A stretch of 64,000 nt of DNA, from the sequence record OK018184. One strand, 5' to 3'. A program made the position numbers and the translations under genes. Shown piece after piece: positions 1 through 8,039 of the stretch. The stretch's first letter is position 1. Every line of letters begins with the position of its first letter. This stretch comes from Shigella phage CT01. The notes below the pieces were generated by a model that ran no database searches, was not told the origin of the DNA, and saw nothing but the letters and a program-made list of their open reading frames with translations.

Positions 1-7
1 TTATAAA

Positions 8-463
8 TTAAAAGAGGCTGTTCATTATTCGGTAAAGTGAAGGGCCCATCACATATTGCCACTGGGTATGAGGAATAAGAGCAAAAGCATCCATCTCTGG
101 AATCATAACGCCATCTTTATTTTCAAAATAAGACTCGCAATGGCAATTTCTAAACATCTCATGCTCTACTGGAATCGTATAATAAAATAACTGTAAGTCT
201 TTATTACTAGAATATTTAAATACACCTAGGTCTTCTAGAAGGTCTGGATTATAATTGCTAAAGCCAGTCTCTTCTAAACATTCTCTTCGTGCTGCATCTA
301 GCGCGCTTAAATCAGAATTTTCTACACGGCCCTTTGGAATATCCCAGCGATGGGCCATCATTCCAGGCTTACGAGAACCAGTAACCCGTCCCATGAATAA
401 ATCTTTATCTTCTGTCATAAAGATAATACCAGCTGATAGTGTTTTCATTTTAATTTCCTGCAT
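8..463 (-). CDS. nudE: NUDIX hydrolase (NudE-like)
   Basis: 151 aa; Nudix box visible (…RRECLEETG…); position matches T4 e.1/nudE next to the e.2-e.8 small ORFs. Confidence 0.8.
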   Translation of the reverse strand: MQEIKMKTLSAGIIFMTEDKDLFMGRVTGSRKPGMMAHRWDIPKGRVENSDLSALDAARRECLEETGFSNYNPDLLEDLGVFKYSSNKDLQLFYYTIPVEHEMFRNCHCESYFENKDGVMIPEMDAFALIPHTQWQYVMGPSLYRIMNSLF

Positions 464-933
464 TCAGTGATAAAGTTATTTAAATTTTGAGTATATTTCT
501 TTTCATCAAAAATCTTTTGTTGTCTGCGTAGCCGCCATGGCATTTCTATGAACGTGTACCATATCCCAGATAATATTGCTGCTGTAAAAATATTAACAAG
601 TATGGTTAAAAGAATCCAATCTCCTATTCTGTCCATTGGATTTTTTATAAAAAAGTAAAATATGAATGATGTCACAGGAAGACTAATAATATACCACAGA
701 ATCATAATTTTATCTGTGAACCAATCAGCGTTCGTTAACTTAGCGCGACCATTATAAATACACACGAATTTATCATCTGTTGCAGTAGATGGCTTAACTG
801 GTTGATATCCCATTCTAAACTCCCTAATTAACAAATTTTTCATATCTTCGGAACAGCCATTCCAGTCAACTCTATCAACTGGAATGCCATCATCCCCATC
901 ATCTAAATCATACCAGCGAGTTTTTAAAATCAT
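445..933 (-). CDS. small membrane protein (T4 e.x-like region)
   Basis: 162 aa ORF with hydrophobic segments; overlaps neighbours by a few codons, suggesting translational coupling. Confidence 0.5.
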   Translation of the reverse strand: MILKTRWYDLDDGDDGIPVDRVDWNGCSEDMKNLLIREFRMGYQPVKPSTATDDKFVCIYNGRAKLTNADWFTDKIMILWYIISLPVTSFIFYFFIKNPMDRIGDWILLTILVNIFTAAILSGIWYTFIEMPWRLRRQQKIFDEKKYTQNLNNFITECRKLK

Positions 934-1292
934 TTAATTTTCCTACAATCACTCACAAACTCTTCCATTGATTCTTTTTCAATATAAGACATGTAGTTAT
1001 TATATTCCTTTAATTGTATTTTGTAATCCTTTTTTCTTTGCCAATTTATTTTAAAATTATCATAATGAAAATATAGCATGGTGCCAAAGAATGAAAATAA
1101 TGAAATCGCTATAGTATAACGAAGTTCACTCCAAACTTCTATTATATTTACTGTGCCGTCAATGTTTAAAATAAGACAGTCAATTAACAATCCAAAAAGA
1201 CTACCCGCAAGAGCTGCAGCCAACGCCACAGCAAAAATTAAAAATGACTCAGGAAGCGAATATTTGACTTTATTTAGTTTTGGCTTTTGCAT
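930..1292 (-). CDS. small membrane protein
   Basis: 120 aa, two hydrophobic helices (…LIFAVALAAALAGSLFGLLI…); coupled to flanking ORFs. Confidence 0.5.
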   Translation of the reverse strand: MQKPKLNKVKYSLPESFLIFAVALAAALAGSLFGLLIDCLILNIDGTVNIIEVWSELRYTIAISLFSFFGTMLYFHYDNFKINWQRKKDYKIQLKEYNNYMSYIEKESMEEFVSDCRKIK

Positions 1293-1687
1293 CGTGATTC
1301 CTTAACAAATTTCATAATTTCATCAAATTCATATGCAGCAAGTTTAAGCTGGTGTTCCTTTTTAATCTTTTTGCACTGTGCTTTCCAATCACGTACGCGT
1401 TTACGATAATGTCTTCCTTGATACCAGTATCCTACCCAATTTACAGGTACTAATAAAAATGGAACTACTAATGGAAGAATTAATACTGACAGAAATATTA
1501 CACCAGATTCAATATCAGTCATAACGTCTATAACCATTCCAATAATCAATAGAATTACAAATGATATAGCTGTCACAGGACCTATTAATACATCGGTAGA
1601 AATTATCTGGTGCTTTGGTTCATACTTCAAAGGTTTACTTGGAAGGTATAGTAATGGCTTTGACATATTCTCTACATTCCTTAACAA
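1274..1687 (-). CDS. small membrane protein
   Basis: 137 aa with long hydrophobic stretches and a basic C-terminus. Confidence 0.5.
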   Translation of the reverse strand: MLRNVENMSKPLLYLPSKPLKYEPKHQIISTDVLIGPVTAISFVILLIIGMVIDVMTDIESGVIFLSVLILPLVVPFLLVPVNWVGYWYQGRHYRKRVRDWKAQCKKIKKEHQLKLAAYEFDEIMKFVKESRCKSQN

Positions 1688-2249
1688 ATTTTTCTAGTAA
1701 TAAATCGCTTTCAAAATTAGGATTTTCCACGAATTTATCAAAAAGATCATCAATAATAGTCAAGATATTCCTTTTATTAAGAATACGCTTATTTTCATAT
1801 TTTGTTTCAGAGTCAACTATAAGAGTAAAGAAATATTTCTTTCCCTGAAATTTTACCGTAGTATCAATATAAAATAAATTTGACTTTTGTAAATTACGTC
1901 TAAACCACGCGTCACTTAAACTATAAACGCCAAGATAATCATAATCGTCATTTAAATAACAAACTGTCCATTCAGGAGAAATGAAATCAGTAAATTCAAC
2001 ATCAAAATCACACGTCAATGAATGAATTGATTCAATACTGTTAATGAGTATTCCAGGACGTATTAAAGACTTTTTACCTCTAGAAAATCTTCCAGAAAGA
2101 CTTTCATCAGTTTCATATGAAGACCCCCAATAGTAATTACGTCCTTCTGCCATACGTTTAAGAGCATTTAGTAATTGGTCTGGAACATCAACCTGTCTTT
2201 GGAACTCTTCAAACATTGAATTGAAATCACTTTGCATTTTCATTTTCAT
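1635..2249 (-). CDS. hypothetical protein (accessory)
   Basis: 204 aa ORF, same strand as the surrounding operon; no motif recognised. Confidence 0.5.
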   Translation of the reverse strand: MKMKMQSDFNSMFEEFQRQVDVPDQLLNALKRMAEGRNYYWGSSYETDESLSGRFSRGKKSLIRPGILINSIESIHSLTCDFDVEFTDFISPEWTVCYLNDDYDYLGVYSLSDAWFRRNLQKSNLFYIDTTVKFQGKKYFFTLIVDSETKYENKRILNKRNILTIIDDLFDKFVENPNFESDLLLEKFVKECREYVKAITIPSK

Positions 2250-2267
2250 TCCTATTTACTCCAAGTA

Positions 2268-2287
2268 TAAGGGGCCGAAGCCCCTTA
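2268..2287 (-). terminator. GC-rich hairpin between accessory genes
   Basis: taaggggccgaagcccctta hairpin between ORFs 1635-2249 and 2291-2884. Confidence 0.35.
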
Positions 2288-2290
2288 TCA

Positions 2291-2884
2291 TTATTTCAGA
2301 GAATTAATGTATTCCTGAACATCGGCAGAGGTAGTTTCAACCCCGGAAATATTACCGTTAAAGGTTTCAACTCGAGCAAGAGTATCTTCAATATCAACCT
2401 TAGTTAGCGCTGCAATTTCAACTACATCATCGGCAGTACTAATTCCAAGGGCATTTGCCGCACGAGTTTCACGGATATATTCCAATTTAACCGCAAGTTC
2501 TTGGCGAGCATCATCTAACTCAACTACTTTCTTGGCGATTTCAATTCGCATTTCAGCATAACCATCAGCTTTAGTAGTCAACTGCTCAGCTGTTCGACGA
2601 TATAGTAAACCGAGCTTAGCATGCATTGTTACATCTTGACCTTCGGAAAGAAGTTTGCGAATTTCACACTCTTTTGATTCGGCTTGTCGATTCTTTTCGA
2701 TAACAAGTTCACGAATACGTTTTTCTTCATTAATAGATTTAACAGAAGCAGTTTTTAGGTCTTTAATTTTATCAAGAAGTTTTGCTGCTGCAGCAGTATA
2801 CTGTTCTTCAACAGATAGATTTTTAGCCATAGCAGAACCAAGTTTAGTGCGAATAAACTCAACAATTTTCTTCAGTGTGTTCAT
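2291..2884 (-). CDS. PspA/IM30-like coiled-coil protein
   Basis: 197 aa, highly helical and charged; by eye resembles the PspA core (…[16 protein letters not shown]… vs PspA …[22 protein letters not shown]…). Confidence 0.45.
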
Positions 2885-2927
2885 AGTATTTCCTTAGGTT
2901 GATTAAAAATTAAAATCTGTGGAAGAA

Positions 2928-3458
2928 TTATATCATGCTATTTAAGAGATGTAAACTATTTTTAATTTTACAAATTCGTTCAGCTTCTTCAACAGCGGCG
3001 GCGATAATGCTTTTAGCTATAGGAGTACTAATACTAGTAGCTTTTACACTTAACACGATTTCTTTATCTTTACCAGGCCAACCCCACGATTTTTCACCGT
3101 GAGTGCCTTTAATTACAGCAGACACCTCAAGTGAGCATCCATTATCATATGTTTTTACATTGACAACCCAAGGTTCACTTTTCTCAATCGGTTTCTCAAT
3201 CGGTTTATCCCAGTAAATATTAAGAATACGTGGGACATCAAATTTGGCAGGACAAATCTTAACTGTAAGACCTTCGCTTTCTAGCCAATTAATAAGAGGG
3301 CGTTCATACAGGCGACGATGTGGGCTTGGGATTCGACAAGCCTTATGTCCGTTGCTTGCGGCTTCACTAAGCTGTTCTAATACCTGCTTTTGCATTATTG
3401 ATAAGATACCATCAAAAGATTTTTCGGAAGTTTCATTCAGTTCGGTATAAAGAGACAT
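2928..3458 (-). CDS. hypothetical protein (accessory)
   Basis: 176 aa ORF; internal PIEKPIEK duplication; early-type promoter motif upstream. Confidence 0.5.
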   Translation of the reverse strand: MSLYTELNETSEKSFDGILSIMQKQVLEQLSEAASNGHKACRIPSPHRRLYERPLINWLESEGLTVKICPAKFDVPRILNIYWDKPIEKPIEKSEPWVVNVKTYDNGCSLEVSAVIKGTHGEKSWGWPGKDKEIVLSVKATSISTPIAKSIIAAAVEEAERICKIKNSLHLLNSMI

Positions 3459-3483
3459 AACAGTTTCCTCAAATTATAGGCTC

Positions 3484-3513
3484 ATAATATCTCAATCATG
3501 AGCCTATGTAAAC
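3484..3513 (-). promoter_or_regulatory. early-type sigma70 promoter (minus strand) within an inverted repeat
   Basis: minus strand reads GTTTACA, 17-nt spacer, TATTAT; overlaps a perfect 10-bp inverted repeat. Confidence 0.4.
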
Positions 3514-3831
3514 TTATTTCATATTATTAAAATATTCTTCTGCGATTTCGTCGTTATCATGGTAAACTTTAGAAGACAGTTTAACATAACCTTCAGCAGT
3601 GAACATGTTAATCACAACCTTTACAGTATACCACTGACCATCTTCATTACCCATTACTGCGTAAGTTTCAAACATCGGATGGTCAGGACCGATAACTTTA
3701 ATATCATTCACTGTACGACCGAAATCTTCTGAAACGCATTTCATAAAGAAGTTGAACAGTTCGCCGTAATTATCCATTTCATTCTCCAAGTTGTTTTTCT
3801 GTATCAGTAGTTGATAGTTGTATAGTACCAT
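3514..3831 (-). CDS. hypothetical protein (accessory)
   Basis: 105 aa ORF on the operon strand. Confidence 0.45.
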   Translation of the reverse strand: MVLYNYQLLIQKNNLENEMDNYGELFNFFMKCVSEDFGRTVNDIKVIGPDHPMFETYAVMGNEDGQWYTVKVVINMFTAEGYVKLSSKVYHDNDEIAEEYFNNMK

Positions 3832-4017
3832 GGAAGAACGGGGATGTAAACCGTTTTGTGAAAAAATTTTTAAAAAGTTTTAGGGAATTCTAGGGCAGGG
3901 ATGGGCAATTAAAAGGTAGGATAATATATTATAAAGGGTATAAACTAAATGATGCCTAGAGAGGTCTGGAAAGGCCTAGATACCAAAAAGCCCTATCATT
4001 TAGATAGGGATTTAAAA

Positions 4018-4506
4018 TTATTTACCTAGTTTAGTTATTATAGCTTCGGCAGCAGCTTTTAGCTTAGATGCAGTGTTAATACGATTTTTAATTTCAGTAT
4101 AAGCATCGCCAAGAACATCAAGGCTATCAGAATAAACACTTACACTATTGCGTTCGCTATTTGAAATAGAACCTTTAGTTTTACGATCAAAATCGGTATA
4201 CACGTCTTGAAGATCACGGGCTGCCTTCTTTGCATCATCCAATGCATCAAGAGCTTTATTCAAAGCATTGACATATTTTTTAGTGTCAAACATATTCTTA
4301 GAAATTTTGAAAAATGCTTTATTGAAATTATTTTCTTGACTCATCGTAAAAGAACTATTATCGATGTTATACATTTCAATAGCTTTAGCTTTCCACTTAA
4401 GAAAATCGCCCCGGTCTTTTGGGTCCAAGTGGAAGAATACTTTAGTAAGATCTGCTTCAGATGGTAATTTTGCTGCTTCGGTTAAAAATTCGGCATAAGT
4501 TTTCAT
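4018..4506 (-). CDS. internal-protein-like protein with capsid targeting sequence
   Basis: 162 aa; N-terminus MKTYAEFLTE matches the T4 internal-protein CTS and ends in an L-x-E site of the kind cut by the gp21 prohead protease. Confidence 0.55.
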   Translation of the reverse strand: MKTYAEFLTEAAKLPSEADLTKVFFHLDPKDRGDFLKWKAKAIEMYNIDNSSFTMSQENNFNKAFFKISKNMFDTKKYVNALNKALDALDDAKKAARDLQDVYTDFDRKTKGSISNSERNSVSVYSDSLDVLGDAYTEIKNRINTASKLKAAAEAIITKLGK

Positions 4507-4591
4507 TTAAAATCCTTGAAATAATTTATTGGTTATTAATTATTTATCACGTTGTTATCATCCATGTTAGCATTCTCTGAGTGATTCAAAC

Positions 4592-4620
4592 TAAAAAGCC
4601 CCAACCTTTCGGTCGGGGCT
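4592..4620 (-). terminator. GC-rich hairpin plus T-run on minus strand
   Basis: agcccc…ggggct stem followed by a T-run on the minus strand. Confidence 0.4.
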
Positions 4621-4624
4621 AAGC

Positions 4625-4764
4625 CTTGCGGCAACCTTGTCGGGGTTCCACCTGCTAAGGCAAGTGTTTGTACGAAACGCCGGGATTCGAACCCGGTTAT
4701 TAAGTAGTTGACGCTACTCAATATTTTTAAAAGGCCATATCTCGACCATATCCGAACGTTCCGT
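4625..4764 (-). ncRNA. tRNA-like structured RNA(s), possibly rnaC/rnaD-like
   Basis: canonical T-arm ccggg-ATTCGAA-cccgg (plus strand 4680-4696) and a 7-bp acceptor-like pairing between 4673-4679 and 4757-4763; no clean anticodon/D arm resolved. Confidence 0.3.
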
Positions 4765-4926
4765 CAAAAACGCTACTCGGCTTACGGCAAAGATATTTCC
4801 TCGAATCGATAATTCGGTGCGCCGTTTCTGCTGTGATAGTAAAGAATCAGAACACAGTAAAACTGTGGGAGAAACTATACTCCAGGGAACATCAGTCCGA
4901 CGACTTACCGGTAGCGACCCGGTTTC

Positions 4927-5277
4927 TTAGTATTCTTTTAAAGCATCAACCTGTCCACGACGTTTACGCCATAAATCAATTACTTCATACGCAGATTCAG
5001 CATTTCGAATTGGACGGCATTTATATAAAGACTTGTGATTTTGATATTGTGTAGATAATGGAATTTTATCTAAAAGGTCTTTACGTTCAAAGTATTCGTA
5101 ACCATCTAAACCAAATGAACGATTTTTGAGAAATTGCCAATGACCGTATTCGTTTTCGACATAAACATAATCTGCATGCTGATAAAGTAAATTAATTACA
5201 CGTTCAGAAATAACAGTGTCATTGTGATTAAAATAGAATGTTAAATCATGAACTACTAAATAAACATTACCTTTCAT
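4927..5277 (-). CDS. hypothetical protein within the tRNA region
   Basis: 116 aa ORF between the small-RNA region and tRNA-Arg; no endonuclease motif seen. Confidence 0.4.
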   Translation of the reverse strand: MKGNVYLVVHDLTFYFNHNDTVISERVINLLYQHADYVYVENEYGHWQFLKNRSFGLDGYEYFERKDLLDKIPLSTQYQNHKSLYKCRPIRNAESAYEVIDLWRKRRGQVDALKEY

Positions 5278-5293
5278 ATTTTCCTCACTTAAT

Positions 5294-5369
5294 TGGTCGA
5301 GGCAGTAGGGATCGAACCTACGACCTAGGACTTAGAAGGTCCTTGCTCTTCCTTCTGAGCTATGCCTCG
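5294..5369 (-). tRNA. tRNA-Arg (anticodon UCU)
   Basis: manual cloverleaf: acceptor 5298-5304/5363-5369, T arm gtagg-gatcgaa-cctac, anticodon loop CUUCUAA, CCA encoded. Confidence 0.7.
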
Positions 5370-5373
5370 GATT

Positions 5374-5448
5374 TGGCGGACGTGATAGGATTCGAACCTA
5401 TAACCAATCGCTTAACAGGCGATCGCTCTGCCATTGAGCTACACATCC
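5374..5448 (-). tRNA. tRNA-Asn (anticodon GUU)
   Basis: manual cloverleaf: acceptor ggacgtg/cacatcc, T arm atagg-attcgaa-cctat, anticodon loop CUGUUAA, D stem gctc/gagc, CCA encoded. Confidence 0.7.
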
Positions 5449-5452
5449 AAAT

Positions 5453-5539
5453 TGGTGGGGAGTGGTGGAGTCGAACCACCCGAGTCGCAATGACAATGGA
5501 TTTACAGTCCACACCGCTACCTCTACGGGATAACTCCCC
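5453..5539 (-). tRNA. tRNA-Tyr (anticodon GUA), type II
   Basis: acceptor ggggagt/actcccc, T arm ggtgg-agtcgaa-ccacc, long variable arm, anticodon loop CUGUAAA. Confidence 0.6.
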
Positions 5540-5548
5540 AAATTAATT

Positions 5549-5623
5549 TGGTGGCCCTGGGTGGAATTGAACCACCATCTGGCGATTATGAGTCGCTTGC
5601 TTGAACCTTCCAGCTACAGGGCC
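5549..5623 (-). tRNA. tRNA with CAU anticodon (Ile2 or Met), copy 1
   Basis: acceptor ggccctg/cagggcc, T arm ggtgg-aattgaa-ccacc, anticodon loop CUCAUAA; position matches T4 tRNA-Ile. Confidence 0.6.
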
Positions 5624-5624
5624 T

Positions 5625-5700
5625 TGGTGCTGATTGACGGAATCGAACCGCCGACCTTCTCATTACAAGTGAGTTGCTCTACCTACTGAGCTAAATCAGC
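5625..5700 (-). tRNA. tRNA-Thr (UGU), copy 1
   Basis: acceptor gctgatt/aatcagc, anticodon loop CUUGUAA. Confidence 0.7.
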
Positions 5701-5705
5701 AAAAC

Positions 5706-5795
5706 TGGCGGAGGCGATAGGATTTGAACCTATGAGTCGCCGGAGCGACTGCCGGTTTTCAAGACCGGTGCATTAAACCACTCTGCCACGCCTCC
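5706..5795 (-). tRNA. tRNA-Ser (UGA), type II, copy 1
   Basis: acceptor ggaggcg/cgcctcc, long variable arm, anticodon loop CUUGAAA. Confidence 0.7.
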
Positions 5796-5797
5796 AG

Positions 5798-5871
5798 TCT
5801 CCATACAAGGATTTGAACCTTGGACCTCCTGATCCCAAATCAGGCGCTCTACCAAACTGAGCTACACGGAG
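5798..5871 (-). tRNA. tRNA-Pro (UGG), copy 1
   Basis: acceptor ctccata/cacggag (two G-U pairs), anticodon loop UUUGGGA; CCA not encoded. Confidence 0.6.
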
Positions 5872-5881
5872 TAAATTAAAT

Positions 5882-5955
<74 letters not shown>

Positions 5956-5960
5956 AAATT

Positions 5961-6047
5961 TGGTGCGAGAAGTGGGACTCGAACCCACAAGGAAATCATT
6001 CCGCAGCATTTTAAGTGCTGTGCCTTTACCAATTTGACCATTCTCGC
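5961..6047 (-). tRNA. tRNA-Leu (UAA), type II, copy 1
   Basis: acceptor gcgagaa/ttctcgc, T arm gtggg-actcgaa-cccac, long variable arm, anticodon loop CUUAAAA. Confidence 0.7.
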
Positions 6048-6048
6048 G

Positions 6049-6115
6049 CTGGGAATAAAGGACTCGAACCTTTGCATCCTGGAATCAAAATCCAGTGCCT
6101 TACCAATAACTCCCC
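6049..6115 (-). pseudogene. chimeric pseudo-tRNA at duplication junction (tRNA-Gln 3' body fused to tRNA-Tyr 5' end)
   Basis: Gln T arm and anticodon arm intact to 6106, then the sequence switches to the tRNA-Tyr 5' terminus; D-stem 5' strand lost and acceptor strands no longer pair. Confidence 0.6.
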
Positions 6116-6124
6116 AAATTAATT

Positions 6125-6199
6125 TGGTGGCCCTGGGTGGAATTGAACCACCATCTGGCGATTATGAGTCGCTTGCTTGAACCTTCCAGCTACAGGGCC
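6125..6199 (-). tRNA. tRNA with CAU anticodon (Ile2 or Met), copy 2
   Basis: identical to copy 1, offset +576. Confidence 0.6.
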
Positions 6200-6200
6200 T

Positions 6201-6276
6201 TGGTGCTGATTGACGGAATCGAACCGCCGACCTTCTCATTACAAGTGAGTTGCTCTACCTACTGAGCTAAATCAGC
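6201..6276 (-). tRNA. tRNA-Thr (UGU), copy 2
   Basis: identical to copy 1, offset +576. Confidence 0.7.
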
Positions 6277-6281
6277 AAAAC

Positions 6282-6371
6282 TGGCGGAGGCGATAGGATT
6301 TGAACCTATGAGTCGCCGGAGCGACTGCCGGTTTTCAAGACCGGTGCATTAAACCACTCTGCCACGCCTCC
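6282..6371 (-). tRNA. tRNA-Ser (UGA), copy 2
   Basis: identical to copy 1, offset +576. Confidence 0.7.
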
Positions 6372-6373
6372 AG

Positions 6374-6447
6374 TCTCCATACAAGGATTTGAACCTTGGA
6401 CCTCCTGATCCCAAATCAGGCGCTCTACCAAACTGAGCTACACGGAG
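6374..6447 (-). tRNA. tRNA-Pro (UGG), copy 2
   Basis: identical to copy 1, offset +576. Confidence 0.6.
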
Positions 6448-6457
6448 TAAATTAAAT

Positions 6458-6531
<74 letters not shown>

Positions 6532-6536
6532 AAATT

Positions 6537-6623
6537 TGGTGCGAGAAGTGGGACTCGAACCCACAAGGAAATCATTCCGCAGCATTTTAAGTGCTGTGCC
6601 TTTACCAATTTGACCATTCTCGC
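6537..6623 (-). tRNA. tRNA-Leu (UAA), copy 2
   Basis: identical to copy 1, offset +576. Confidence 0.7.
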
Positions 6624-6624
6624 G

Positions 6625-6697
6625 CTGGGAATAAAGGACTCGAACCTTTGCATCCTGGAATCAAAATCCAGTGCCTTACCAACTTGGCTAATTCCCA
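6625..6697 (-). tRNA. tRNA-Gln (UUG), the only intact copy
   Basis: acceptor tgggaat/attccca, T arm aaagg-actcgaa-ccttt, anticodon loop UUUUGAU. Confidence 0.7.
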
Positions 6698-6794
6698 ATT
6701 ATTAACAAAGGCTCTCAAACAAGAACCCTTGATGATAGAGGGTATTAATCAGTGCGATATGAGTTAATAATAACAAATAATTCTTAAAGCATAT

Positions 6795-7082
6795 TTACCA
6801 TTTATGATAATACATATTTACGATGCATTCAAGACCCAAAGGATTCTTGAAAATATCATATTCAAGAGGACCTTTTTCCGTTTCAATAAAGAAATCAAAA
6901 TTTACTGTATTAAATTTACGGTCTTCCTTCACTAATTTAACTTGAGAAGATGAACGATCAATGTAAACCTTTTCAACTTCAAAACATGTTAAAATGCCAT
7001 AATCATCAATCAAGGCTTTAGCTGCTTCTTGATCATATTTATATCCATTTTCAATGGATGATACTTTCGCATAAAGAATCAT
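6795..7082 (-). CDS. hypothetical protein
   Basis: 95 aa ORF on the operon strand between the tRNA cluster and ipI. Confidence 0.45.
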   Translation of the reverse strand: MILYAKVSSIENGYKYDQEAAKALIDDYGILTCFEVEKVYIDRSSSQVKLVKEDRKFNTVNFDFFIETEKGPLEYDIFKNPLGLECIVNMYYHKW

Positions 7083-7084
7083 TA

Positions 7085-7489
7085 TTAACCTTTATCAACA
7101 ATAGTATGTGTATGGGCATTTACGATTTGCCACCAGTCAAAACTATCGCCAAATCGTTTTGATTTATTGTCTTCAATAATTTGGCGTAATTCATCTTCTG
7201 TTTCAGCATACGCAATCAAATCATCATATCCACCGCAAGGATAGTAATTATCGCCTGCGAACAAAAGAAAATTTACTTTAGATGGGTCTACATAATAATG
7301 CTCTTTAGGATATTTAGTTCCTTTCCAATCAGTTACTTCAACATAACGATAAGAAAATCCATTTTTACTTTCAACCCAACTCCACGCTTCAAAAGGAGTA
7401 TTAAAAACTCTATCAGGTATTAAATTACCTTCAAAATGAGAAGGATTTGCATAATCCCCAGCATAAACATAATATTCGTTAATATTCAT
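7085..7489 (-). CDS. hypothetical protein
   Basis: 134 aa ORF, aromatic-rich; stop adjoins the next start. Confidence 0.5.
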   Translation of the reverse strand: MNINEYYVYAGDYANPSHFEGNLIPDRVFNTPFEAWSWVESKNGFSYRYVEVTDWKGTKYPKEHYYVDPSKVNFLLFAGDNYYPCGGYDDLIAYAETEDELRQIIEDNKSKRFGDSFDWWQIVNAHTHTIVDKG

Positions 7490-7675
7490 TTATTCACCTT
7501 TAGAAATTTTATCCATAACAATAGCGATTAAACCAATTAAAAATGCTACTACAAGTGAAAAAACATTTTCTGCTGTAGTCAATAATCCACATATAAATCC
7601 AACAAACATTGAAAAACTAAAAGCAGAAGCAGAAATTGCAATAGCAACATTTCGAATTAATTCACAACGTTTCAT
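7490..7675 (-). CDS. small membrane protein
   Basis: 61 aa, single long hydrophobic segment; early-type promoter and GAGGAG RBS upstream. Confidence 0.4.
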   Translation of the reverse strand: MKRCELIRNVAIAISASAFSFSMFVGFICGLLTTAENVFSLVVAFLIGLIAIVMDKISKGE

Positions 7676-7704
7676 TTTATTCTCCTCAGTAGTTGATAGG
7701 GTAA

Positions 7705-7734
7705 TAGTATCACAACTAAAACCCTATGTAAACA
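7705..7734 (-). promoter_or_regulatory. early-type sigma70 promoter (minus strand)
   Basis: minus strand reads GTTTACA, 17-nt spacer, TACTAT; embedded in a 20-bp motif repeated at 8094-8113. Confidence 0.4.
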
Positions 7735-7751
7735 ACTTTGTGAAATATTTA

Positions 7752-8039
7752 TTACAAAAGATTTTTAGCAATAATCTTGAGATGTGCCGCAGAAATGTGT
7801 TTAGCTTTAAACAACGCAGTTTCTTCAGCAGGAGAGATAATGATTGTAGCACCATCCTTTTTAGCAGACCACCCATCACCTAGGTAAACAGTACCTTTGA
7901 TTTCTTCGCCATCAACCAAACTAATCATTGGTTTACCTTCTCGTCCTTTATTTGCTTTAATAACTTCAGAAGTAAGAGTAGCTTCAGTAATAGTAGAAAC
8001 CGGGGTAGTTGTAGAAGTAAATTCTTTGAAAGTTTTCAT
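7752..8039 (-). CDS. ipI: internal protein I precursor
   Basis: 95 aa; N-terminal 19-aa CTS MKTFKEFTSTTTPVSTITE ending in an I-x-E protease site; size and position match T4 IPI. Confidence 0.7.
   Translation of the reverse strand: MKTFKEFTSTTTPVSTITEATLTSEVIKANKGREGKPMISLVDGEEIKGTVYLGDGWSAKKDGATIIISPAEETALFKAKHISAAHLKIIAKNLL

Follow-up and report, generated by a model that had tools for sequence, protein, structure and literature searches.

Gene e.6 and its genomic neighborhood

The sequence analyzed here, referred to as the window, is a 64,000-nucleotide stretch of DNA from Shigella phage CT01 (record OK018184). It comes from a Tequatrovirus, and over its first 8 kb it shares 97.7% identity with Escherichia phages EcNP1 and vB_EcoM_Nami. 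A previous reading of these letters without database searches (the sequence-only reading) had drawn attention to a 197-residue ORF at positions 2291-2884. This ORF was confirmed with an ATG start codon and exactly these coordinates; it lies on the minus strand, which that reading had not mentioned. The following features were located (window coordinates).

445-933: e.2
930-1292: e.3
1274-1687: e.4
1635-2249: e.5
2267..2288, minus strand: GC-rich stem-loop AUAAGGGGC-UUCG-GCCCCUUAU (GGGGC-UUCG-GCCCC), beginning 3 nt past the e.6 stop codon
2291..2884, minus strand: e.6 coding sequence, 197 aa plus stop; ortholog of T4 e.6 (UniProt P39224), PHROG 1203
2889..2895, minus strand: Shine-Dalgarno sequence AAGGAAA, 6 nt 5' of the e.6 ATG, as read from the sequence; identical in T4
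2927..2955, minus strand: putative sigma70-type promoter with an extended -10 (TTTACA, 17 nt spacer, TG-n-TATAAT), a consensus match

The flagged ORF is the long-known conserved T4 gene e.6. In T4 (NC_000866), the gene is found at 69312-69905 with the same length and within the same block (nudE-e.2...e.8-tRNA), and its product is 98.0% identical to the window protein, differing by four substitutions (V61I, I62V, R66K and C73R). Thus, the sequence-only reading, which knew of no PspA homolog in T4 at this locus, was wrong on this point, and the gene is not a novelty of Shigella phage CT01. The two genes differ at 23 nucleotides, with 17 synonymous and 4 non-synonymous codons, which indicates purifying selection. 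The window protein matched PHROG 1203, whose function is listed as unknown, with an E-value of 4.7e-87. By tblastn, homologs were detected in 1,099 phage records at identities ranging from more than 99% down to approximately 33%, including phages of Escherichia, Klebsiella, Aeromonas and Cronobacter as well as RB43, and several of these records use the name e.6. The ORF is a genuine conserved gene, and a chance ORF was dismissed.

When a profile built from a narrow alignment of close relatives (A1, at least 47% identity to the window protein) was compared with 1.84 billion representative proteins, we found a small closed family of 45 clusters at 50% identity, whose full-length members were mostly ~195-205 residues long. 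This family (e.6, or PHROG 1203) is common to Straboviridae (T4-like phages) and Ackermannviridae, and the phages in which we found it infect Enterobacterales and Aeromonas. Its Ackermannviridae carriers include Taipeivirus, Serratia phage Muldoon and Erwinia phage phiEa2809; this is the branch of the family that the Pfam PspA_IM30 model still detects. Several database records misname e.6-family proteins as “tail completion protein” or “host specificity protein”.

A Pfam scan of seven adjacent window ORFs revealed no domain, including no AAA+ ATPase domain, and neither pspF, pspB/pspC nor another known Psp partner was present among the ORFs beside e.6. Genes e.5, e.7, e.4, e.3 and e.2 belong to PHROGs of unknown function (the neighbors of e.6 falling in PHROGs 2607, 6869, 2604, 2330 and 2203). 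In Klebsiella phage May (Ackermannviridae), the e.6 homolog has different neighbors (a membrane protein, a DNA ligase and helicases), and therefore T4-like phages and Ackermannviridae have no conserved e.6 partner gene in common. The e.7 slot immediately upstream is variable; the gene at 2928-3458 encodes 176 residues in the window (PHROG 6869) versus 111 residues for T4 e.7, and e.6, its promoter hexamers and the downstream hairpin are conserved. On the other side, a crude Kyte-Doolittle scan indicated hydrophobic, transmembrane-like segments in three small ORFs downstream of e.5 and e.6. An F(I/V)xEC(R)K-type motif is common to the C-termini of their products and of the soluble e.5 product, the instances in e.2-e.5 being NFITECRKLK, EFVSDCRKIK, KFVKESRCKSQN and KFVKECREYVK, and the best E-value in pairwise BLASTP comparisons of e.2-e.5 was 0.01 (e.2 vs. 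e.3). These small ORFs (e.2-e.4) may represent a diverged paralogous set of membrane proteins adjoining the PspA-like gene.

Several other observations were made in this part of the window. The region 4018-5277, where T4 has rnaC, rnaD and segB, contains ORFs at 4018-4506 (162 aa, PHROG 2280) and 4927-5277 (116 aa). At 4620-4597 there is also a strong hairpin of the terminator type, similar to the “RNA C” terminator that has been listed for phage UFV13. The tRNA cluster includes an exact tandem duplication of 576 bp (5530-6682, with 5530-6106 and 6106-6682 being 100% identical), which copies tRNA-Met, Thr, Ser, Pro, Gly and Leu; either a genuine recent event or an assembly artifact could account for it. 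ARAGORN predicted 16 tRNA genes in the cluster, versus 10 annotated in the 97.7%-identical phage Nami. An Rfam search of window positions 1-8000 at the gathering threshold returned tRNAs only.

Expression signals and timing

The promoter-like site lies inside the upstream gene, at its 3' end, and precedes the e.6 ATG by ~40 nt; it was the best such site in a scan of positions 1500-4800, with 11 of 12 matches plus the TG. Both the -35 and the -10 elements are retained in T4 (GTTTACA ... TGATATTAT) despite the differing flanking e.7 sequence. We assign the conserved putative sigma70-type promoter to e.6 itself. In the supplement of a T4 omics study (PMC9697503), e.6 is classified as an early RNA and a middle protein.

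The stem-loop that follows the gene is nearly identical in T4. In our scan it was scored on the plus strand, where the T-run is located, and the coding (minus) strand has no U-tract 3' of it. It is a putative weak terminator or RNA-stabilizing hairpin; it has been listed as a rho-independent terminator with -13.9 kcal/mol (PMC5931544).

Sequence relationship to PspA

The sequence-only reading had described the e.6 product as PspA/IM30-like and had named a Pfam search as a check. For the window protein itself, this search gave no PspA_IM30 (PF04012) match even at E<=10, the gathering score being 33.9. Similarly, an NCBIfam search and PADLOC yielded nothing meaningful, and phmmer found no sequence match in PDB. 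All four single-sequence searches returned noise-level coiled-coil matches only, and single-sequence detection fails for e.6. A direct BLASTP comparison of the window protein with E. coli PspA did produce an in-register alignment with 24% identity and an E-value of 0.023, which applies to a single comparison.

Profile-based searches were more sensitive. Against PDB, the A1 profile matched Vipp1 chains at E-values of 1.2-2.8, with query residues 4-143 aligned to Vipp1 residues 4-145, and these chains were the only PDB sequences matched in register. For profile-profile comparison, we assembled a PspA/Vipp1 alignment of 14 sequences (A4), which included PspA of E. coli (from MG1655) and of four other enterobacteria, Synechocystis Vipp1 (read off the PDB alignment) and eight PspA homologs from IMG/VR viral contigs. 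Attempts to collect additional PspA sequences gave Enterobacterales proteins only, at least 78% identical, so the diversity of A4 comes from the Vipp1 and IMG/VR sequences. The hhalign comparison of A1 with PspA/Vipp1 gave an E-value of 0.024. As A1 was too shallow, a broader alignment was needed, and 38 full-length e.6-family members with identity down to 18% were taken from the search of 1.84 billion representative proteins (A2).

When all A2 members were scanned with Pfam, 5 of 38 matched PspA_IM30. Two of them scored above the gathering score of 33.9, namely P0184 (E-value 8.9e-10, 39.0 bits) and P0183 (E-value 1.4e-8, 35.1 bits), with their residues 6-146 placed on profile positions 2-143. 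The same two proteins were retrieved over their full length by the e.6 profile, with E-values of 3e-20 and 1e-21. We regard these matches as the decisive sequence link between the e.6 family and PspA. Protein P0184 shares ~84% identity with proteins from the Klebsiella phages May and UPM 2146 (Ackermannviridae, genus Taipeivirus). The phage May homolog (L092:4001-4609) also belongs to PHROG 1203 (E-value 1.2e-64), aligned with the window protein over 194 residues at 24.7% identity (E-value 4.7e-20 in a local database of ten proteins), and matched PspA_IM30 slightly below the cut-off (E-value 1.1e-7, 32.1 bits).

Comparison of A2 with A4 by hhalign gave a probability of 93.6% and an E-value of 2e-7, with e.6 residues 1-138 aligned to PspA residues 1-133 at 12% identity and with the local alignment beginning at residue 1 of both families. 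In global mode, the two families were collinear to both C-termini (e.6 1-197 vs. PspA 1-214, E-value 5.8e-8), with low posterior confidence in the C-terminal third. The real pair scored 50.6, and the controls scored far lower (17-20 for reversed alignments and 9-18 for 30 column shuffles), and the signal is therefore not due to coiled-coil composition. In addition, a 2021 genome announcement (PMC7862958) described a homolog of T4 e.6 in Klebsiella aerogenes phage Metamorpho, gp163, for which HHpred gave an alignment to E. coli PspA (4WHE_A) at 99.9%.

These data bear on the idea that the e.6 product is a coiled-coil protein of a generic kind that works away from the membrane, for instance as an assembly chaperone or scaffold, or in the “tail completion” or “host specificity” function given in some records, and that its likeness to PspA reflects convergence on a helical hairpin. 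An in-register profile match over 133-140 residues, beginning at residue 1 and standing up to the reversal and shuffling controls, is not what convergence of composition would give. Besides, the records offer nothing to back the structural-protein names, and early transcription does not suit a structural role. We consider this explanation very unlikely, and on the sequence comparisons it is disfavored. As for the two annotations, we rejected them as unsupported propagated names after comparing them with genomic context and timing.

In summary, e.6 is very probably a PspA homolog, and the family-level evidence supports its placement in the PspA/IM30(Vipp1)/ESCRT-III superfamily, as a member that is compact (197 aa) and highly divergent. 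The PspA/IM30 assignment therefore stood at the level of the family, through P0184 and P0183 passing the Pfam gathering score, the hhalign E-value of 2e-7 and the Foldseek matches to Vipp1 described below; it did not stand for the window protein taken singly, which lacked a Pfam match.

Predicted fold

The e.6 product has a calculated mass of 22.0 kDa and a pI of 5.7. It had been characterized from its letters as a charged helical protein, and this description agreed with both its composition (32 K+R and 34 D+E) and two AlphaFold2 models, built from A1 and A2, which were almost entirely helical (mean pLDDT of 75.6 and 83.4, respectively). Helices at residues 2-22, 25-80, 86-145 and 186-196 were agreed by both models, and short helices between residues 150 and 175 varied slightly (151-160 and 166-174 in the A2 model). 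The following parts were distinguished, with window coordinates.

2819..2881, minus strand: residues 2-22, counterpart of alpha0, a predicted cationic amphipathic helix (models, hydrophobic moment, family conservation, hhalign)
2450..2812, minus strand: residues 25-145, predicted helical hairpin, the ESCRT-III/PspA core (AlphaFold2 models, hhalign, Foldseek)
2297..2434, minus strand: residues 151-196, predicted short C-terminal helices at 151-160, 166-174 and 186-196 (models, motifs)

In these models, the helix order is that of PspA, Vipp1 and ESCRT-III proteins, i.e., alpha0, an alpha1-alpha2/3 hairpin and short C-terminal helices. The hairpin consists of alpha1 (25-80), a turn (81-85) and alpha2/3 (86-145), with equal boundaries in both models and pLDDT values of 85-98. 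Residues 151-196 are modeled as a shortened counterpart of PspA alpha4/alpha5. This region contains two conserved motifs, LARVETF and YINSLK; within A1, T174 and F175 are invariant and Y192, S195, L196 and K197 nearly so. Both BLASTP and global hhalign placed LARVETF on PspA MARFESF and YINSLK on LAQLK, with low posterior confidence.

The sequence-only reading had also proposed a structural comparison with PspA, Vipp1 and ESCRT-III, and its outcome was favorable. The top eight Foldseek matches in PDB were all Vipp1 (entries 7o3w, 7o3x, 8qbs, 8qbw, 9eom, 8qbr and 6zvr among them), with E-values of 2e-3 to 2e-2 and a probability of 1.00. Rank 9 was a domain of Legionella LegC3, and the archaeal ESCRT-III protein CdvB2 appeared from rank 10. 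A fold search of BFVD returned e.6-family proteins of T4-like phages and Ackermannviridae at the top, with lower matches to a Snf7 family protein and to the PspA/IM30 family protein of Acinetobacter phage ME3. In these single-chain models, the number and order of helices fit the five-helix ESCRT-III core, and ESCRT-III proteins were weaker structural matches.

Amphipathic helix alpha0

Residues 2-22 were placed on PspA residues 1-22 by hhalign. They have a hydrophobic moment of 0.453 (0.42 in PspA and 0.57 in Vipp1) and a net charge of +4. In a shuffle test on this single sequence the moment was not significant, as 11% of shuffles reached the observed value (p ~0.11), so the case for an amphipathic alpha0 rests on the conservation pattern across the family. 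In all 38 e.6-family members the net charge of this helix was +1 to +5, and hydrophobic positions (3/4, 7/8, 10/11, 15 and 18/19) as well as basic positions (5, 6, 12, 14 and 21) were conserved. According to PMC4556811, the N-terminal amphipathic helices of PspA and Vipp1 are required for membrane binding. The KAEDP motif at the alpha0/alpha1 junction, which is invariant in the 14 sequences of A4, is missing from e.6, where the junction reads K21-N-L-S-V-E26 (K-N-x-S-x-E in the family, with K, N and E conserved and no D-P). KAEDP is a conserved signature and not a formal definition of the PspA/IM30 family.

The character of alpha0 is relevant to the question of whether e.6 acts on the host Psp system. 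Enterobacterales carry PspF-PspABC systems, and Aeromonas is believed to carry them as well; the occurrence of the e.6 family in phages of these hosts would suit a PspA mimic that works as a regulator rather than a membrane effector, binding the host AAA+ activator PspF, or PspB/PspC, and silencing or redirecting the host Psp response, although such a host-range bias may only mirror the choice of phages for sequencing. Given the general shut-off of host transcription by T4, there would seem to be little need for a repressor dedicated to a single sigma54 operon. With regard to the protein itself, the homologous region spans PspA residues 1-133 and the crystallized 4WHE fragment corresponds to E. 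coli PspA 1-144, and negative regulation involves the binding of PspF by a lower-order PspA oligomer (PMC3128695). However, identity to E. coli PspA is only 24% by BLASTP and 12% by hhalign, and consequently no PspA interaction surface is visibly conserved in e.6, and the conserved cationic amphipathic alpha0 suggests membrane binding instead. A regulatory role of this kind appears quite unlikely to us.

Possible function in membrane protection

The host psp operon requires sigma54/PspF-dependent transcription for its induction, and T4 shuts off host transcription. Because this shut-off should prevent induction, the phage would need its own copy of PspA. PspA has been reported to have an ESCRT-III fold and to remodel membranes (bioRxiv 10.1101/2020.09.23.309765). 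By analogy, the e.6 product would build up in the cytoplasm soon after infection, attach to the inner membrane via alpha0 and the hairpin, and polymerize there in the manner of PspA and Vipp1. Such a polymer might seal or stabilize membrane harmed by penetration of the tail tube, by superinfection or by the accumulation of holin, and would thereby preserve the proton motive force needed by the phage. Early expression from a promoter used by the host polymerase means that the timing would fit this mechanism. We consider protection of the inner membrane and the proton motive force by a PspA-like polymer a tentative proposal, with a little less than an even chance of being right.

A related possibility is that e.6 serves in anti-defense, as a PspA-like membrane stabilizer directed against abortive-infection effectors that depolarize or perforate the inner membrane. 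It draws on the same structural evidence as membrane protection, and would be in keeping with early expression of e.6 from a putative promoter of its own and with the position of the gene in an accessory region that varies, e.7 and the genes next to the tRNAs being different in T4. However, conservation at one locus in ~1,100 phage genomes and across two phage families better suits a housekeeping function in infection, PADLOC gave no meaningful match, and beyond the HHpred note in PMC7862958 the literature searched contained no paper on e.6 and PspA. We regard a dedicated anti-defense role as unlikely.

Returning to membrane protection, if confidence in homology and confidence in mechanism are combined as a compromise, it appears somewhat probable that e.6 is a member of the PspA superfamily that acts by protecting the membrane. 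A more specific version is more doubtful, in which e.6 would be a working phage-encoded ESCRT-III-like membrane-repair polymer that replaces the host phage-shock response blocked by T4 shut-off. It is possible, although less likely than not, that this polymer would be needed to hold the proton motive force while the tail tube punctures the membrane, during superinfection and over a prolonged lysis inhibition; alternatively, the need that it serves might be to blunt membrane-depolarizing abortive-infection effectors, a variant that we hold just as tentatively. The roles in envelope integrity, lysis timing or superinfection suggested by the sequence-only reading are plausible candidates.

Prior knowledge and significance

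The homology between e.6 and PspA is already known from the 2021 announcement (PMC7862958). Besides that report, our literature search found no paper that pairs e.6 with PspA and none on phage-encoded PspA/ESCRT-III proteins, and no functional study of e.6 was found in the literature searched. Phage homologs were not discussed in the main text of two PspA/ESCRT-III surveys, and a CRISPRi-ART T4 preprint contained no e.6 entry in its text or in the supplement examined.

PspA, Vipp1 and ESCRT-III proteins are universal polymers of membrane repair and remodeling. The presence of a conserved, early-expressed relative in T4, ~1,100 related phages and Ackermannviridae suggests that large virulent phages come equipped with a membrane-maintenance protein of their own. 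As e.6 is small and T4 genetics is mature, this idea is directly testable. If e.6 is indeed a membrane-repair polymer, it would be the first viral protein of the PspA/Vipp1 branch with a defined function, and in the best-studied phage. The remaining value of e.6 lies in this experimental lead and in correction of the “host specificity protein” and “tail completion protein” names in databases.

Comparison with known systems

Compared with E. coli PspA (PF04012; PDB 4WHE), the e.6 product shows the same predicted helix order from residue 1 and an alignment that is collinear end to end. Both have an amphipathic alpha0, a hairpin (~56 + 60 residues in e.6) and short C-terminal helices, and the C-terminal LARVETF of e.6 resembles MARFESF of PspA. 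In contrast, e.6 is shorter (197 vs. 222 aa, with identity of 12-24%), lacks the KAEDP junction motif present in PspA, carries a more positive alpha0 (net charge +4 vs. 0) and, in the window, falls below Pfam PspA_IM30 detection. The genetic setting also differs; e.6 has no adjoining pspF or pspBCD, and its putative promoter is of the sigma70-type phage early class by consensus match, whereas E. coli PspA has a sigma54 stress promoter.

ESCRT-III proper (Snf7/CHMP and archaeal CdvB) has a helical-hairpin core like that predicted for e.6, and CdvB2, CHMP1 and Snf7 were among the structural matches, which were much weaker than those to Vipp1. ESCRT-III often works with an AAA+ partner, and no AAA+ ATPase domain was present in the seven ORFs adjacent to e.6. 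Cyanobacterial and chloroplast Vipp1/IM30 proteins (PDB 7O3W, 6ZVR, 8QBS and others) were the best structural matches of e.6, at weak E-values (1.2-2.8 in the sequence search, 2e-3 with Foldseek). The C-terminal extension specific to Vipp1 is missing in e.6, which stops where the PspA core stops.

Other phages encode canonical PspA_IM30 proteins of the same superfamily, for example Acinetobacter phage vB_AbaM_ME3 and IMG/VR viral contigs L084-L091, some of which are 260-360 kb in length; all eight of these contigs encode such a protein. Thus, carriage of PspA by phage is not unique to e.6. The canonical phage proteins match the Pfam model at E-values of 1e-28 to 1e-37 (three scanned) and keep KAEDP in 8 of 8 IMG/VR contigs; the e.6 family (PHROG 1203) is a separate and much more divergent lineage.
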